Source of the DNA: Dehalococcoidia bacterium
GTDB lineage: Bacteria; Chloroflexota; Dehalococcoidia; SM23-28-2
DNA: 64,000 bases
Assembly (NCBI GenBank): GCA_020356025.1
Contig: CP070630.1
Coordinates: 1,729,027 to 1,793,026, forward strand
Direction: 5' to 3'
The position numbers and the translations under genes are program-made. Positions 4,849-52,622 of the stretch are shown here, piece after piece. The notes beneath the pieces are model-generated. The model searched no databases. It was not told the DNA's origin and saw nothing but the letters and a program-made list of their open reading frames with translations. Numbering within the stretch: the stretch's first letter is position 1; each line of letters starts with the position of its first letter.

Positions 4849-5067
4849 CTACTTCCCAGGCGGACTCAGCACCAGACGGAAACCGTCCTCAACATCCACG
4901 ACTGTTACGGAGTAGCCCCTGCTCTCGGCCAGCCGCGATACGTTCTCCTTCGAAACCCCGCTCTCTACAAGCACACCCAAAGATTCGGTCGGATTCTCAT
5001 CCATGGCCTTTTTGGCTTTGACCACTGGTATAGGGCAAGAGAGACCGCGAACATCGACCTCAATCAT
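4849..5067 (-). CDS. SirA/TusA/YedF-family sulfur/selenium carrier
   Basis: VDVRGLSCPIPVV (CPxP motif), 72 aa; ATGA overlap with the upstream gene. Confidence 0.88.
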   Translation of the reverse strand: MIEVDVRGLSCPIPVVKAKKAMDENPTESLGVLVESGVSKENVSRLAESRGYSVTVVDVEDGFRLVLSPPGK

Positions 5068-5960
5068 TGTTGCCCTCCTTCCGCATAGCAGACCCCACTC
5101 CACTGGCAGAGGTACTCTTTGAACACTGCCTGATACTGACCGATAATCTGCCGCACCCTGGTGGCTGGAGTAGCCTCTGCAAACTTCCCCGCCATGCGAT
5201 TCGATCTAGCGGCGACTATGGCTGCCTCCCGCAACTCCAGCCCAGCATGGACAAATGCGGATACAAGACCCGTGATAGTGTCCCCCGTCCCCCCAACAGC
5301 CTCCAGCGCAGGCACGTTGGGTTTCTCCACGCTAGCCACAATGTCCCCACTGTCCACCACATGATCGGTTGCCCCCTTGACCAGCAGCAGCCTGGCCGCG
5401 TTGTTGTGTTCGTAGGCGTCAGCGATAAGCCCTGGAATCTGACCCATGTCAGCATCGAAGAGGTGTCTGGCGATATACGCCGGGTGGGTGGCATCCCGGT
5501 CAGCCAGAAATGCCATCTCTGTGGCATCCGGCGTGAAGATGTCGAAATGAGAGGCCAGCCCCGCTGCCTTGGCCGCGTACATCGAGCCCGCGTCGGCGAT
5601 CATGAGCACCTTATCGGCGCATCTTTGGATGGATTCGCAGAGCCTCCTCATCAGGGCCATAATGGGAAGGCAATAGTGCAGCACCATTACCTGGGGAGAA
5701 ATGTCACTCACCTTCTGGATGAGATATTCGTAGATCTCCCGGCTACCCTTGCCCTGCCCGATGTCTCCTGCAACCACGACTTGGGGAGCGTCCAGCTCCA
5801 GGTAGTCGACCGCGGCCAGCGCAGCGCTGATCATGGCCCCGGTGCCCTGAGCACACGGGATCCGGCGGCCGTCGACAACCAGACCCTCCCCTTCGAGCAC
5901 AGCGCGCCCTATGGTTAGGGGAAAGTCCCTTATGGGTACAGTCCCGGCAACGAGCATCAT
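5064..5960 (-). CDS. Ribokinase-like / YjeF-C (carbohydrate kinase family) protein
   Basis: IADAG, TPDATEMAFL, LLVKGATD and GGTGDTITGLV motifs; SD GGAGGTGG. Confidence 0.75.
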   Translation of the reverse strand: MMLVAGTVPIRDFPLTIGRAVLEGEGLVVDGRRIPCAQGTGAMISAALAAVDYLELDAPQVVVAGDIGQGKGSREIYEYLIQKVSDISPQVMVLHYCLPIMALMRRLCESIQRCADKVLMIADAGSMYAAKAAGLASHFDIFTPDATEMAFLADRDATHPAYIARHLFDADMGQIPGLIADAYEHNNAARLLLVKGATDHVVDSGDIVASVEKPNVPALEAVGGTGDTITGLVSAFVHAGLELREAAIVAARSNRMAGKFAEATPATRVRQIIGQYQAVFKEYLCQWSGVCYAEGGQQ

Positions 5961-5962
5961 CG

Positions 5963-6496
5963 CTACCCACCTCCCCGCCAGAGAATCAAGCACTCTTCAA
6001 GGGCCCGGTCCAGCATCAGAGCGCACAGGGTGAAGCCTATATCCCTGGGCCGCGGGGCCTCGGTTAGCCTCTTATCCACAAGCTCAGAGTGCAGATAGGG
6101 AATATCAGGGCAGCCCCCACCTGAAACGTTAACAATGATGCCGCTCGCCTTGTCGAAGGAAAGCTTCATATTGCCCGCCTTCACCATCACCTGGTCGCCG
6201 AAATCCGTCGCCTTGACGATTCCCAGGAGCTCCGAAGTGCCTACCCTAAGCGGAGCGACGTCGACATACGTGGCATCCTTCTCCTTGAGCACCCGCTCAA
6301 TGCCGGGCTGTTCCACCAGGTTCACCTCCAGCGCCAGGTCACAGCCTTTGCGCAACTTTGGCGGCGGAGCAACCAACTTGACAGCGTAGTCTGCTTTTCG
6401 GAGCACCTTCTCCGCCCTCACTGCATCCTGTACGTCCTCGAAAAGCACTAGCCCTCCGCCCTCGAAGGAAGGCTTCTTTCGTCTGAGGAATGCCAT
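5963..6496 (-). CDS. DUF3343-domain protein with Cys-containing C-terminal extension
   Basis: AVRAEKVL...VAPPPKLRKGCDLAL (DUF3343-like); SGGGCPDIPYL; FTLCALML. Confidence 0.7.
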   Translation of the reverse strand: MAFLRRKKPSFEGGGLVLFEDVQDAVRAEKVLRKADYAVKLVAPPPKLRKGCDLALEVNLVEQPGIERVLKEKDATYVDVAPLRVGTSELLGIVKATDFGDQVMVKAGNMKLSFDKASGIIVNVSGGGCPDIPYLHSELVDKRLTEAPRPRDIGFTLCALMLDRALEECLILWRGGG

Positions 6497-6509
6497 GATC
6501 ACCTACCCC

Positions 6510-7703
6510 CTAAGCTTCGTCCCCGGCGGCGACCTTCACCCTGGGACGAGCCTTCTTCCACCAAGCCATCAACCACGCCTTGTCCATCGCCGCAAAGCCA
6601 ATGGCAGCCGCCACCACCAGACCGATAACGACCGCCTCCGGCCCGTATGGACTGACGCCGGCGGGCGAGCTAGCGAGGTTGAAGTTGTGGGCGAAGGCTG
6701 CCCCGGTGATCATACCGAGCACGAACACGGCCGCGTCGCCATCACCTTCGCCGGACAGGAAGAGCTGCCTGCCGGGGCACCCCCCCGCCAGCGCGAAGCA
6801 CAGCCCGGCAAGCGCCATGCCCAAGAAGTTCCACAGATGATTGTCGTGGGCCACCGGTTGGTCGGCAAAGCCAAGCTTCAGCAGCTCCTCATCAGTGAAC
6901 CCATGGATCACGGCGTTGGTGACCACTGCGGCGGCCAGAAGGGCGAGCACTCCGCTCAACAGGTGACTGTCCCTGACAAGCACGACATCGCGGATGGCGC
7001 CCATAGTGCAGAAGCGAGTACGTTGCGCCAGCACGCCGACCACAATTCCCACCACCAGCGACACCCAAATCGCAGGATGCAGCGACCCCGGCCCTTCGAT
7101 GCTATCGAAGATGGGGCCGACAAGGTTGCCGTCGGCGTCGCGCCCGAACTCCGGCGTGTAGATAGCGAGCAGCAGCAGGCCGAGCATGGCCGCCGGCAGC
7201 ACTAGGCCGATGATGAGCGGCGCCCGCTGCGCCCGGCCCAGGTTGTAACCGCTCCCGATAAACATCGCCCCCACGGTTACACCGGCCACCAGCCCCGTCA
7301 GACCTAGGATAGCGTTCAGGTCGCCGCCCGCCAGGCGCAGCAGGGCACGCCAGGGACAGCCCAGGAACACCAGCGCTCCAATCATGGCAGAGACGCCGAG
7401 AGCAAAGCGGACGATCGGCGCCGAACCGGCGCGCGCCCTGAACTCCCGGAACAGGACGGCGGCTAGCAGTGCCCCCAGCACGAAGCCGATTATCTCCGGC
7501 CGTATGTACTGGACGACATCGGCCCTGTGCAGCCCGAGCGCTCCGGCGATGTCGCGCTCAAAGCAGGCCACACAGATGCCCATGTTCTTAGGGTTGCCCC
7601 AATACACCAGCAGTGGGGCAAGGATCCCGATGAAAGCTCCCGCAAAGATGATCCCCCAGCGTGAGGCGAAAAAACTGTTGAGCTTAGACATATAGTCGGC
7701 CAT
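6510..7703 (-). CDS. yedE: YedE/YeeE-family putative selenium transporter
   Basis: GNPKNMGICVACFERDIAGALGLH, YIRPEIIG, FLGCPWR, QRTRFC and GGCPGRQ motifs; multiple TM helices; ATG at 7703 follows AGGAGAAGGA (track start at 7919 is overextended). Confidence 0.88.
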   Translation of the reverse strand: MADYMSKLNSFFASRWGIIFAGAFIGILAPLLVYWGNPKNMGICVACFERDIAGALGLHRADVVQYIRPEIIGFVLGALLAAVLFREFRARAGSAPIVRFALGVSAMIGALVFLGCPWRALLRLAGGDLNAILGLTGLVAGVTVGAMFIGSGYNLGRAQRAPLIIGLVLPAAMLGLLLLAIYTPEFGRDADGNLVGPIFDSIEGPGSLHPAIWVSLVVGIVVGVLAQRTRFCTMGAIRDVVLVRDSHLLSGVLALLAAAVVTNAVIHGFTDEELLKLGFADQPVAHDNHLWNFLGMALAGLCFALAGGCPGRQLFLSGEGDGDAAVFVLGMITGAAFAHNFNLASSPAGVSPYGPEAVVIGLVVAAAIGFAAMDKAWLMAWWKKARPRVKVAAGDEA

Positions 7704-7908
7704 TGCTGATTCCTTCTCCTTGCGCTCGACAAGTGAAAGGACGCCATCATCCGCTGGCGGCGATGTCGTGTGATCGATACCTACGCCAAGCGTCTGATGC
7801 GCCCCCCTGCGTGGCGCTGGGCGGGGTCTCGAGCGAGCCTCAAGCCGTCGCTCTGCTGCGGCTAGCCCGGCTTTTGAGAGGTTAGGTGTTTGGAGACGAG
7901 GCGACCAG

Positions 7909-8025
7909 CTAGACCACAACGGGAAGAGAGGCTACTCGAGCAAATGACTGGCGCAGAACCTGCGTCACGCCCCTAGGGCGCTTCCGTCAGACTCACGTGA
8001 AGCCGAGGCGCGGCAGCCAGGTCAT
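7909..8025 (-). CDS. Putative selenocysteine-containing leader peptide (uORF) MTWLPRLGFT-U-V-U-RKRPRGVTQVLRQSFARVASLPVVV
   Basis: SD AAGGAGGTGA (8031-8040) 5 nt before ATG; in-frame TGA at 7993-7995 and 7987-7989; SECIS-like hairpin downstream; TAG at 7909-7911. Confidence 0.6.
7945..7980 (-). promoter_or_regulatory. SECIS-like stem-loop in the yedE leader
   Basis: CGCAG-GUU-CUGCG hairpin (7952-7964); loop G follows 27 and 33 nt after the two UGAs; second hairpin CGCCC-UAG-GGGCG (7968-7980). Confidence 0.55.
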
Positions 8026-8088
8026 CGCTCTCACCTCCTTCCCTCGTGGCCAAAGCTAGTCCCTCAAATGCGGGGGGCTATCACCGAG

Positions 8089-8117
8089 ATCATCCCCACC
8101 GCGGGCGCTTGGGTCAA
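8089..8117 (-). promoter_or_regulatory. Putative sigma70-type promoter of the leader-yedE operon
   Basis: TTGACC-N17-GATGAT; the same (C/G)AT(C/G)AT -10 variant follows TTGACA-N17 at 35399, 52711 and 61929. Confidence 0.45.
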
Positions 8118-8130
8118 GCGTCGCACTGCG

Positions 8131-8748
8131 CTAGCCAACCTCCCGCAGCAATCTCACAGCCTCCTCAAGGTCGGCCTGCGTGTTGATGTTGAAGAAGCTC
8201 AGGTGGCGGGGGTCGATGCGGTCGATCGTTCCTTCGTCCACGTAGCGTACTCTCACCGCCTCAAACAAGGGCGCGATCTTGAGGTCGCCCGCTCGCACCA
8301 TCCGTTCCATCGGCGTGAGGCAGGCCTTAGAGTAGAGCGCGTGAAGGGGCTCGATCTGACCTCCCAGGAGCGGGACCACCGCGTCGACGTTGCTGCTCTC
8401 CCCTATCAGATGGCGAAGCAGTTCACCGTTTAGGAACGGCATGTCGCAGGCCAAGACCAGGCTCCACGGCTCGGCCGAAGCGTCGAGTCCGCTGAAGATT
8501 CCCCCAAGCGACCCCCTGCCGGGGTAGCGGTCGCTCACCACCCGCACCGAGGGCGGCAGGCGAAAGGCCGCCGCCTGCTCGGGCTGCGCTACCACTACCA
8601 GCACCTCGGTTGTCAGAGGCACAAGGCTGTCTATCACCCGCTCGATGAGCGCCTTGCCGCTGATGCGCTCCAACGCCTTGTTCCTTCCCAGGCGCCAACT
8701 CGCGCCACCAGCCAGGATGACCCCGCTCACCTTAGTCGGCTTACCCAT
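8131..8748 (-). CDS. mobA: Molybdenum cofactor guanylyltransferase
   Basis: VILAGGAS.RLG.NKA, GSLGGI, LACDMPF, EPLHALY and FFNINT motifs. Confidence 0.92.
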   Translation of the reverse strand: MGKPTKVSGVILAGGASWRLGRNKALERISGKALIERVIDSLVPLTTEVLVVVAQPEQAAAFRLPPSVRVVSDRYPGRGSLGGIFSGLDASAEPWSLVLACDMPFLNGELLRHLIGESSNVDAVVPLLGGQIEPLHALYSKACLTPMERMVRAGDLKIAPLFEAVRVRYVDEGTIDRIDPRHLSFFNINTQADLEEAVRLLREVG

Positions 8749-12572: not shown

Positions 12573-15500
12573 CTAGGCCTTTCTCACATCCACCAGGAAG
12601 ACCTTATACTCTGGGATCATCGTGTTGCCATCGCCGACGTGGGCGGTCAGGTCGTTGGCGACGTCGCCGGTGGCCAGCCCCTGCCAGCCGTAGTGCCAGG
12701 GCATTCCCACCTGATGCACCTTCGTACCGTTGACCTGGAATGGCTTCCACCGCTTGGTAACCATTGCTACCATCTGAATCTGTCCCCGCGCCGATCTGAC
12801 GATGACCTGGTCACCGTTCTTGATGCCCCTCTCCTGCGCGAGTTCTTCGCCGATCTCCAGGAACATGTCAGGCTGGCACTCCGCTAGCCACGGGAGGGTG
12901 CGGGACATCGCCCCGGCCTGCCACTGCTCGCACAATCGATAGGTCGAGCAGACGATCGGGAACTCGTCCGCTGTGCCCACCTTGTCGCCGATGTCCTTGT
13001 CCGCGTCCGTGTCCCACAGTTTGATCACCGGGTTGTTCTGCTGGCTGGAGATCGGGTTCTGCACCGGCGACTCCACGGGCTCGTAGTGCTCCGGGAATGG
13101 CCCCTCATTAAGGCTCGAGGGAGCGAACAGCCATCCCTTGCCGTCGCTCTTCATGATGAACGGGTCGGTGCCGGATTGGGCGCCGAGGCCCGATGCGGCG
13201 GGGTCGGCCTTGGCATCCGGTGCCTTGGTCTTCGAAAAGTCGGGCACATCGTAGCCTGTCCACTCACCGGCCTCCGCGTCCCACCAGATGACCTTCTTGT
13301 TCTCCGCCCAGGGCGTCCCGTCCGGCCTCGCCGAGGCGCGATTATAGAGGACGCGCCGGTTGGCCGGCCAGGTAAAGCCCCAGTAGGGGTAGAAGCCGTA
13401 CCCGCCGGGGTCCTTCTGACCGCGTCGCTTCACCGCCGGCATGACAGCGCCGGTGCCGTCGTCGGCCTCAGCGAAATAGCCGGCGAAGAGCCAGTTGCCG
13501 CAGGCGATCATCCCCGGATCGGCGGCGGAGGCGATAGTGCCGAAGCCGGGGATGACCTTCCCCTTCTCCACCAGCACCTTGCCGCTGGCGTCCTTCACGT
13601 CCTCCGCGGCATAGCCATTGACCTCACGGGCGACAAGTTCCACATCCGGCTCATCCCCGTAGTCCCACACCAAGTCGAGGAGGGGGGAATCCTTGGAGTC
13701 TGAGGAGGGCGCGTAGACCTCCTTGAGGGCTTTCACCAATTGGGTGAGGATCCAGATGTCCTCCTTCGCCTCGCCAGGCCCCCCTGCTATCGCCGGCCGC
13801 CACTGGTTACGGCGACCGCTGGTGACGATGCTCCCCGCCTTCTCCACGGCGTCAACCGCCGGCAGCAGGAACACCTCGGTATTGATGTCCTCGGGCTTGA
13901 CGTTCGGCCCTTTCCAGAACGAGGCCGTCTCGGTCTCGAACAGGTCCATGACCACCAGCCAGTCCAGGTTCTCCATCGCTTTGCGCTCGAAGCGCGCGTT
14001 GGGCCCGCCCACGGCTGGGTTCTGGCCCATGCAGACCAGACCCTTGATCTGGTTCGCGTACATCGCCTCAAAGAGGCTGATCCAGGAGTAGTTCCCGCTC
14101 GTCTTGGGCACGTAGTCGTAGGCGTAGTCGTTGTCCTTCGTCGCCGCGTCCCCGAACCAGGCCCTCATCAGGCTCGCGAAGAACTTCGGCCCATTGACCC
14201 AGTAGCTGGTCGTAGCGAAGCGCTGCTTGGAGTAAGCGGCGTAGTCAACGTCCGTATCGCGCGGGCAGCCGAGGTAGCCGGGAAGAATGTGGAACAACAG
14301 GGCCATGTCGGTCGAGCCCTGGACGTTGGACTCGCCCCGCAGCGCGTTGACGCCGCCGCCCGGCATGCCGATGTTGCCCAGGAGCAGTTGGAGCATGGCC
14401 ATCGACCGCACATTCTGAGTGCCCACGGTGTGCTGCGTCTGGCCCATGGCGTACATGATTGTGCCGGACTTGTCGACGGCGCCGGTGGCGCAGTACAGTT
14501 CCGCCACCTGAAGGAACTCGTCTTTCGGCGTGCCGCATACCTGCTCCACTACCTCAGGTGTGAAGCGAGCGTAGTGCTTCTTCAGGTGGGCGAAGACGCA
14601 GTTGGGGTCGTCGAGGCTTGTAGCCTGCTTGATCGTTGCCAGCTCCTTCGTGACCGTTGCTTCTTGCCCCGTCTCAGGGTCGGTCTCGGTGGATGTAACC
14701 GCCTCCTTCTCGATCTGGTATTGCCACGACGTCGTGTCGTACGATCTCTTCTCCGCGTCATAGCCGGAGAAAAGGCCATCGAGGTCAGCCGGTCCCTGGA
14801 AGTCTGGCTGGACCAGAGTGAGAGCGTTGGTGTAGTACTTCACGTACTCCTCGTTGTAGAGCTTGTTCTGTATCGTGTAGTTGATCAGCCCACCCAGGAA
14901 GACGATGTCGGTGCCCGAGCGCAGGGACGTGTACAGATCGGACGTGGCCGCCGTGCGAGTGAAGCGCGGATCGACGACGATCAGATTGGCCTTGTTCCTG
15001 TCCCGCGCCTCATTGACCCAAGTCATGGACGCTGGATGGTTCTCAGCAGGGTTGGCGCCAATGACCAGGATACAGTCGGAGTTCTTGATATCAGTCCAGT
15101 CATTGGTCATGGCACCGCGGCCATACGTGGGGCCGAGACCGGCCACCGTGGCCGAGTGTCATATGCGTGCCTGGTGCTCTAAATACACCACCCCTAGAGC
15201 CCGCGCCAGTTTGACGCTCAGGTAGCAGTCCTCGCTGTTGTTGGCAGCCCCACCGATCCACGCCAGGCCCTCAGCGCGATTGACCGTCACGTCCTTGCCG
15301 TCGACCTTGACGGTGCTGACGAAGCTATCATCACGCGTCTTCTTGATACGCTTGGCGATCTCGGCCGTCGCCCAGTCCCACGACTTCTCCTCCCACTTCT
15401 CTGAGCCTGGAGCGCGATACATCACCGTCTTCAGGCGCAGGGGGCTGTTGGAGAGTTGGGGCACGGAAACAGACTTCGGGTCGAGGGCGCCACGGTTCAC

Positions 15501-51752: not shown

Positions 51753-52622
51753 CTATTCCGCTGCCTTTGCTCGGCGGCGCTGCTCAAGGAGAAAGGCTAT
51801 GATGGGCGCTGGCTCGGAGGCTTGCCACTCCCGCCTCCAGCGCTCCCAGTCTGGCCACTCGTAGGGCAGGTGCTCCACCGAGTTCGGCTGGCGAGCATCC
51901 CGCAGGACACGCAGCGCGTCGCGGATAACCTTCATCTGCTCCTCGCGCTCGCCGGCATGGCCCAGCGTATGGCCGAAGGGGAATTCCACGCCCACTATGC
52001 GGGGAACGCCGACGCGCTCGGCCAGATCAGGCACCATCGTGACCATAACGGTGCTGATACCAGCGGCCTCGATGACACGTGCCAGCACGGGCACGTTCAG
52101 GCAGCAGTCCGGTCAGGTGGGAGCGAGAAGAACACCATCCACTCCCTCCTCCTTCATGCGAGCGGCCACCTCGGGTCCGTAGCGGTTCTCCCACTCGCTG
52201 ATCTTGGGCGGGTTCCCCTGGTAGCCCATGAAGGAGTAGGAGGTAGGAGCCAGGGAGCCAACCTCTCCCGCTGCCTCCAGCTCCAGAAAGCGATGCACGG
52301 GCAGGACGATGTTGACGTCCGCCTCCAGATCGGTGCTGTTGATGTGGAGGTGAGCGACGCCGATCTCCTCCTGCTTAACCTCGCGGGCGATGGCGCGATA
52401 AGTGGGGTCACCCCAGAAGGGGTTCTTCCGCTCTCCGTCCAGGTCGAAGGGCTCCTGCTTGTCCTTCAGATAGAGGCCAGCGCTCGTGACCAGTGAGAAG
52501 CGACACTCCTCAATGGGTTTGGCGAGGGGCGTCCAGGGGATAGGCTCCGCCTTCTCGATGGGGAGCGCCTTGTAGTAGCTAGCGAGGCTTCCCGGCACCC
52601 ACTTGTAGCTATCGATGGCCAT
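51753..52622 (-). CDS. Selenocysteine-containing PrdB/GrdB-family (reductase selenoprotein B-like) protein
   Basis: PWTPL.KP, LVTSAG, GDPTYR and D.N...P motifs; track ORFs 52113-52622 and 51753-52094 are in frame across TGA 52113-52115, giving LLAPT-U-PDCCLNVPVLARVIEAAGISTV (UxxC). Confidence 0.85.
52077..52096 (-). promoter_or_regulatory. SECIS-like hairpin of the PrdB/GrdB-like gene
   Basis: Perfect 7-bp stem ACGUGCC-CGUGCU-GGCACGU beginning 16 nt after the UGA. Confidence 0.65.

Follow-up and report, generated by a model that had tools for sequence, protein, structure and literature searches.

Ribosome-mediated attenuators of the trpL type control the transcription of amino-acid operons, and tnaC, mgtL and speFL are leader-peptide switches that depend on Rho. 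Selenium sensing in bacteria is largely open, and a leader carrying a selenocysteine (Sec) codon would give the 21st amino acid the attenuator it has lacked. The nearest precedents are the SECIS-like element in the 5' untranslated region of Escherichia coli selAB (PMC13449736) and the coupling of fdhF transcription to selenium in Treponema primitia (PMC3892789). Recoding in E. coli depends on selenium, and ribosomes in which Sec insertion fails are terminated by RF2 (PMC4513850). PMC3892789 cites an attenuator engineered for an unnatural amino acid and describes such a system as unreported in nature. A natural Sec-codon leader was not found described in open-licence PMC and bioRxiv full texts, including the accessible portion of PMC8124441, nor in those of PMC11955535 and PMC13188914; such ORFs could be listed in supplements of selenoprotein surveys.

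According to PMC11097638, a dedicated selenium transporter has yet to be established; the paper reports that in Methanococcus maripaludis yedE mRNA increases 5.3 log2-fold on selenium starvation and that deletion of YedE gives no clear transport phenotype. Here we analysed a stretch of 64,000 nucleotides from a Dehalococcoidia bacterium (the window), in which an earlier note had proposed that a Sec-codon leader controls the yedE operon. Comparative evidence strongly supports this core idea, and amends some of its details.

Anatomy of the leader and its genomic context

The genome (63% GC, 83% complete) encodes selA, selB, selD (with an in-frame TGA) and tRNA-Sec, and rho is also present. As the earlier note had it, this genome uses Sec, with two selenoprotein genes in the window: fdnG (TGA at 15161) and a PrdB-like gene (TGA at 52115). 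The latter, PrdB/GrdB-like and located at 52625-51756 on the minus strand, has its own hairpin and scores 168 bits with TIGR04483, below the cut-off of 300. A DsrE/TusD-like gene (16151-15783, minus strand) lies ahead of fdnG, with no leader seen upstream of it in the window; its homologue in locus L228 has a tandem-UGA leader upstream.

The first gene 3' of the leader is yedE, and a MobA-like gene ends at 8131. Among the matches listed, the closest named YedE comes from a Dehalococcoidia MAG (L050, 87% identity). On re-checking the sequence, all the coordinates first proposed, from the promoter-like site to the yedE start, were found to match. The elements are, in the direction of transcription:

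8089..8117, minus strand: sigma70-type promoter-like site, -35 TTGACC, N17, -10 GATGAT
8023..8043, minus strand: leader Shine-Dalgarno sequence (SD, 8040-8031) and ATG (8025), also the 5' strand of helix P1
7909..8025, minus strand: leader ORF, 38 codons with read-through (10 sense codons, UGA-Val-UGA, 25 codons, TAG at 7911-7909)
7993..7995, minus strand: first UGA (codon 11), conserved candidate sensor codon
7987..7989, minus strand: second UGA (codon 13), a subfamily trait, which can pair with GUCA below the SECIS
7967..7981, minus strand: small first hairpin, 17 nt 3' of the UGA; the genome's own selD has a hairpin at equal spacing (by eye)
7949..7967, minus strand: selD-type SECIS hairpin, apex GCAG-GUU-CUGC, core hairpin 7964-7952
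7921..7948, minus strand: switch segment inside the read-through frame, pairing with the leader SD/AUG (P1) or with 7841-7828 (P-alt)
7872..7900, minus strand: C-rich, G-poor tract of 29 nt with one G, candidate Rho loading site
7828..7841, minus strand: P-alt partner of the switch segment, predicted duplex -22.8 kcal/mol, 3 of 100 shuffles as strong
6510..7703, minus strand: yedE, putative selenium transporter (TIGR04112, 478 bits against a cut-off of 200), start at 7703
5963..6502, minus strand: Se/S carrier-like gene (PF11823, DUF3343)
5064..5993, minus strand: YjeF/carbohydrate-kinase-like gene (PF01256)
4849..5103, minus strand: TusA/SirA-like sulfurtransferase gene

TTGACC-N17-GATGAT is the sole promoter-like match in 7600-8300 (shuffle mean 0.2), and family members have TTGAY-N17-GATAAT or CATACT at the equivalent position (by eye). 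The tandem stop triplets read TGA-GTC-TGA (7995-7987, minus strand). An Rfam scan of the window gave no match, and neither did the read-through peptide with NCBIfam and Pfam. Since a loose rule (SD, ORF, TGA, hairpin) fires in 21 of 600 random 420-nt segments of this genome (3.5%), a single instance of such a leader is weak evidence, and the case for it rests on conservation.

Conservation in the genus and origin of the SECIS cassette

yedE was found in 5 of 65 genomes of the order, all five in this genus. Comparison of the regions upstream of yedE bore out the proposed leader: all four same-genus relatives, whose loci were found by protein search, keep the SD, the ATG, the UGA at codon 11 and the hairpin, which lies 33 nt after the UGA, as well as the TAG at codon 39 and hence the 38-codon length. 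A Gly codon replaces the second UGA of the window in all four orthologous leaders.

The note had also suspected that the segment derives from a selD 5' end, which proved right for the SECIS cassette. Of 48 bases compared in frame downstream of the UGA, 26 in the window and 32 in a relative are identical to the genome's own selD, and the distance from the UGA to the SECIS loop in the window leader is 33 nt, as in its own selD, with a near-identical apex. Only 7-8 of 30 bases match selD on the 5' side of the UGA. Because the match is high after the UGA and low before it, the SECIS cassette was probably derived from selD, and the first ten codons probably were not. A strict SECIS pattern, used before the looser rule described below, matched inside the genus only, and no leader with a strong SD and a hairpin was found upstream of selD and selB in 11 loci.

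Leaders upstream of yedE in other lineages

A fixed rule (SD, start, 3-15 codons, stop, and a G-loop hairpin 12-35 nt further on) was applied to the 400 nt upstream of yedE in 161 loci among the matches listed, which are best-scoring subsets; two of the 163 loci were left out because of short flanks. In these listed loci the stop of the matching ORF was TGA in 65 cases, TAA in 4 and TAG in 3. The controls gave 3 matches in 161 loci on the reverse strand and 3-10 in ten dinucleotide shuffles, about six being expected by chance. Matches were found in 5/5 listed loci of the genus, 20/48 of other Dehalococcoidia and 35/78 of a set of mixed named records (mostly Anaerolineae), and the distribution is patchy, with 5/30 listed loci in Desulfobacterota and 1/24 in a later Spirochaetota set. 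Arg precedes the UGA at position -3 in 45 and at position -2 in 37 of 68 curated leaders, and is specified by several synonymous codons. In five tested genomes the leader hairpin lies 18-21 nt after the UGA, and the SECIS of the same genome's fdh or selD 17-19 nt, or 33 nt in two selD genes. The apex of the leader hairpins likewise matches that of the SECIS in Sec genes of the same genome.

An adjacent LysR gene (PF00126/PF03466) is present in 17 of the 161 listed loci, none of which has a leader, compared with 65 of the 144 others (Fisher 1e-4, related loci not being independent). This observation suggests that the leader and LysR are alternative solutions. An ATAA-N7-TTAT-like box (one mismatch allowed) occurs upstream of yedE in 16/17 LysR-adjacent loci, 7/69 leader loci and 30/75 loci with neither; it is a candidate LysR_Se operator, in a comparison in which AT content was not controlled.

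Several loci have features of their own. In L028 (G230), a tRNA-Sec-like gene appears to precede the leader and yedE directly, and yedE has a terminator ahead of it (by eye). Four Desulfobacterota-group loci (L086, L176, L183 and L187) have a separate leader type, in which the peptide ahead of the UGA is rich in Pro and Leu and the hairpin has a GGT/GGC loop; no terminator was found in this type. In L196 (G289), a gene between yedE and selD has an in-frame TGA after a Gly-Gly motif, at position 250, and is possibly an unannotated selenoprotein gene.

Two putative attenuator layouts in relatives

An intrinsic terminator lies at the end of 32 of 51 long leaders, of the Anaerolineae type. A segment 40-65 nt downstream of the UGA base-pairs with the 5' arm and loop of the terminator, more strongly than in shuffles (z <= -2) in 24 of the 32, and this antiterminator segment sits inside the read-through frame, beyond a ribosome placed on the UGA. 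In an alignment of 26 terminator-type leaders, two-sided changes affect 15 of the 18 pairs that make up the SECIS and terminator, as well as 8 of the 9 in the antiterminator; 94-96% of cells are paired, compared with 15-60% for slid controls. These relatives thus have the trpL-type structure, a terminator with an overlapping antiterminator. In equilibrium folds of whole leaders, placing the ribosome at the UGA instead of the stop clearly lowers the probability of the terminator in 9 of 32 and clearly raises it in 2-3, the others showing no change. The layout is predicted to follow trp-type logic: when the UGA is not decoded the antiterminator would be left free and the gene would be on.

Short leaders are built differently. 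In each of the 16 that the rule detected, read-through crosses the start of yedE in a different frame (about 190-230 nt), so that it would repress; a leader seen by eye in L030 is an exception, being in frame with yedE. Both the terminator-type and the short-overlap layouts therefore predict expression when the UGA is not decoded.

A wider family of 39 leaders

Scanning for the window leader with a sequence pattern gave 56 metagenome and 9 genome loci, from which 17 without an SD (chance matches) and 9 exact duplicates were removed, leaving 39 distinct copies. Since the start context, the UGA and two downstream 4-mers were set by the pattern, they are bound to be invariant; the SECIS apex and a GCCUC motif, which lie outside the pattern, are invariant in 29 of 29 aligned copies.

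Tandem UGAs, after which the earlier note named its attenuator, did not hold up as the defining feature: U-x-U is present in only 15 of the 39 copies (with five different middle codons), and the four same-genus orthologues have a single UGA. Eighteen copies have one UGA and an intact hairpin, and in the remaining six the hairpin has decayed. Tandem UGAs also occur in unrelated leaders (L071, L108, L088 and L191, and by eye L119). The pairing of the second UGA with the hairpin base, suggested at the outset, appears in the computed fold, and this pairing below the SECIS may account for part of the conservation of the second UGA.

Besides yedE, the family precedes a double-cubane reductase gene (NF040772, above cut-off), a TusD/DsrE-like gene and a gene for the Cys form of an OsmC-like (seleno)protein (NF041052, below cut-off). 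The double-cubane and OsmC-like genes gave no tblastn match in this 83%-complete genome. Copies with a decayed hairpin precede an HdrD-like/ETF operon, one of them in this genome. This second copy (G000:C1 952226-952135, minus strand; L150/L271) shares the ten-codon start and the UGA, but its hairpin has decayed and 1 nt is deleted; it is retained in G057, G059 and three metagenome loci. The operon 3' of it encodes HdrD-like, EtfB, EtfA, Fe-S membrane and HdrA-like proteins; the frame of the HdrA-like gene (G000:C1, about 946792-946183, minus strand) is lost after about 200 codons, possibly through a frameshift or an assembly error.

Candidate output step of the window copy

The window copy has, as trpL-type attenuators do, an SD-led short leader ORF with a codon for the sensed aminoacyl-tRNA. 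No convincing intrinsic terminator was found between the leader and yedE, and for this reason we did not file it as a trpL-type member. A terminator-like site at 7752-7739 was rejected, as it consists of 5 pairs and relatives lack its U-run.

In the consensus fold of the family the leader SD and AUG pair with 7948-7921 (P1, 19 pairs, none with a two-sided change). The P1 duplex beats 99-100 of 100 shuffles in 32/32 copies with an intact hairpin, four P1 motifs being fixed by the search pattern. For P-alt, at most 5 of 100 shuffles are as strong in 16 of 32 copies; one of its pairs is A-U in 18 and G-C in 9 copies, covariation that may reflect one event, and its partner has been relocated yet kept in three copies. 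In folds of the family P1 dominates without a ribosome (mean 0.82-0.86), and P-alt exceeds 0.5 in 20-22 of 31 copies when the stretch from the SD to the UGA is covered; the equilibrium fold of the window itself does not populate it (0.0).

Between the two strands of P-alt lies a C-rich, G-poor stretch, and the C-rich tract begins inside the read-through frame. From +80 to +160 the family has a mean C content of 35-42% and a mean G content of 19-26%. Both a rho gene and a C-rich, G-poor tract after the leader, as expected of a Rho-dependent switch, are thus present. In equilibrium folds the mean unpaired fraction of the tract is 0.43/0.47/0.53 for the family, and in the window accessibility hardly changes between the free and the UGA-occupied state.

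Two other outputs were considered and rejected: control of yedE by an anti-SD, as constrained folds of 30 family copies show no switch at the ribosome site (0.38-0.42), and a relay of downstream helices to the yedE SD, which was unsupported (by eye). Two window-family loci (L214 and L249) have a terminator-like hairpin and U-run over the P-alt partner, perhaps the trace of an ancestral intrinsic terminator (by eye).

The lack of a terminator, the position of P-alt around a C-rich stretch and the lack of a switch at the yedE site lead us to infer Rho as the likeliest output and on-when-scarce as the likeliest direction. We give Rho action on the C-rich tract, after complete translation of the leader, about an even chance against the other outputs.

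Discussion

The comparative evidence makes it very likely that the leader senses Sec. That it acts as a ribosome-mediated selenium sensor, which would keep the yedE operon on under scarcity of Sec-tRNA and off under abundance, is in our judgement likely, and it is probably a new form of ribosome-mediated attenuation. In the proposed mechanism, SelB-GTP-Sec-tRNA would bind the hairpin and allow the ribosome to read through the UGA. At low selenium the ribosome would pause or stop at codon 11, so that the stretch from 45 to 105 nt after the start could refold; when selenium is ample, the ribosome would translate across this stretch to the TAG. In Anaerolineae-type leaders the position of the ribosome would choose between the antiterminator and the intrinsic terminator, in short leaders ribosomes reading through would cross the start of yedE in a different frame, and in the window copy Rho could load on the C-rich tract once the leader is fully translated. 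Two UGAs would sharpen the response.

The same sensor could operate with the opposite sign in the window: termination at the UGA would bare C-rich RNA, Rho would terminate transcription, and the operon would be on only with selenium, as fits YedE as an exporter, the function proposed by Lin et al. (PMC5322559). Such a switch agrees with the presence of rho and with a C-rich tract that starts within the read-through frame, and the polarity model for T. primitia, where selenium raises the full-length fdhF transcript, offers a parallel (PMC3892789). We nevertheless consider it unlikely, as both decipherable layouts upstream of yedE in relatives predict that read-through turns the gene off, as starvation induces yedE in M. 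maripaludis (PMC11097638), and as one family copy heads the Cys-type homologue of a selenoprotein family.

Still less probable is that the switch consists in SelB-Sec-tRNA binding the hairpin, leader translation being incidental. The E. coli selAB 5' untranslated region is a known precedent (PMC13449736), and short leaders do place the hairpin near the yedE ribosome site. However, the E. coli hairpin is 3 nt from the SD and that of the window about 230 nt from the yedE SD, and such binding would not account for a strong SD, a start, an in-frame UGA at SECIS distance and Arg at -3/-2 being kept across classes.

The conservation of an Arg-Arg-Thr-like ending in many leaders, and of the peptide despite the decayed hairpin before the HdrD-like operon, could mean that the UGA is the ordinary stop of an arrest-type leader peptide sensing something else, for example arginine or a metabolite. 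The strong bias of the stop towards TGA in the listed loci (65, against 4 TAA and 3 TAG), the resemblance of the hairpin to the SECIS of the same genomes and the location of the antiterminator in frame after the UGA make this very doubtful. Nor do we give much credit to a small selenoprotein whose product matters, even though members of the genus keep the length of 38 codons and some of the sequence: the products of read-through range from about 25 to 100 codons and have no sequence common across lineages, the peptide matches nothing in NCBIfam or Pfam, and its constant part within the family coincides with RNA helices. Least credible of all is a decayed, functionless selD 5' fragment, since the in-frame identity to selD after the UGA (26-32 of 48 bases) is accompanied by 7-8 of 30 bases before it and an intact selD elsewhere, and conservation of the cassette in 39 copies before four kinds of gene contradicts decay.

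The wiring of the leader predicts that the gene is on when selenium is scarce, and this direction argues for YedE in uptake rather than export. As the leader precedes them, the double-cubane reductase, DsrE-like and OsmC-like genes are candidate members of selenium acquisition or back-up, and the leader motif is a search handle for further target genes. We think it reasonably likely that these leaders form a selenium regulon across many anaerobes, in which UGA-SECIS leaders, built more than once (here from a selD SECIS) and acting through intrinsic terminators, overlapping frames or Rho, take the place of LysR_Se and switch on uptake and cysteine back-up genes at low Sec-tRNA, tandem UGAs being amplifiers that arose in several lineages. 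Terminator-type leaders are compact and directly testable, and could serve as selenium biosensors.

Comparison with known systems

LysR_Se and HrsM (PMC5322559; PMC11097638) share with the leader a selenium-linked control, and LysR genes adjoin yedE in 17 of the 161 listed loci, but they are protein regulators. The E. coli selAB 5' untranslated region resembles it in having a SECIS-type hairpin in a 5' leader that reports SelB-GTP-Sec-tRNA, with repression at ample selenium (PMC13449736). It differs in that its hairpin adjoins the regulated SD (3 nt) and in that no leader ORF is described in the accessible text, whereas the window hairpin comes after an in-frame UGA and is separated from the target SD by about 230 nt, and thus does not sit as a selAB-type operator would.

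With tnaC, mgtL and speFL the window copy has in common a short leader, a C-rich, G-poor tract after it, no intrinsic terminator and a rho gene in the genome; unlike theirs, its ligand would be Sec-tRNA sensed through the UGA and SECIS, and the change in tract access is nearly nil in the window folds. The trpL type (summarised in PMC3892789) has the same SD-led short leader, sensor codon(s) and mutually exclusive helices, and in Anaerolineae-type relatives the likeness extends to an antiterminator and an intrinsic terminator, with covariation. The differences are that the sensor of the Sec leader is a recoded stop codon needing a SECIS and SelB, that limitation would give pausing or termination rather than a hungry sense codon, and that the window copy is without a convincing intrinsic terminator. 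Finally, in T. primitia fdhF-Sec, decoding of a UGA with its SECIS likewise couples selenium to transcription, but it does so inside the selenoprotein's own coding region and turns expression on with selenium (PMC3892789), whereas the window has a dedicated leader ahead of non-selenoprotein genes, predicted to be on without selenium.
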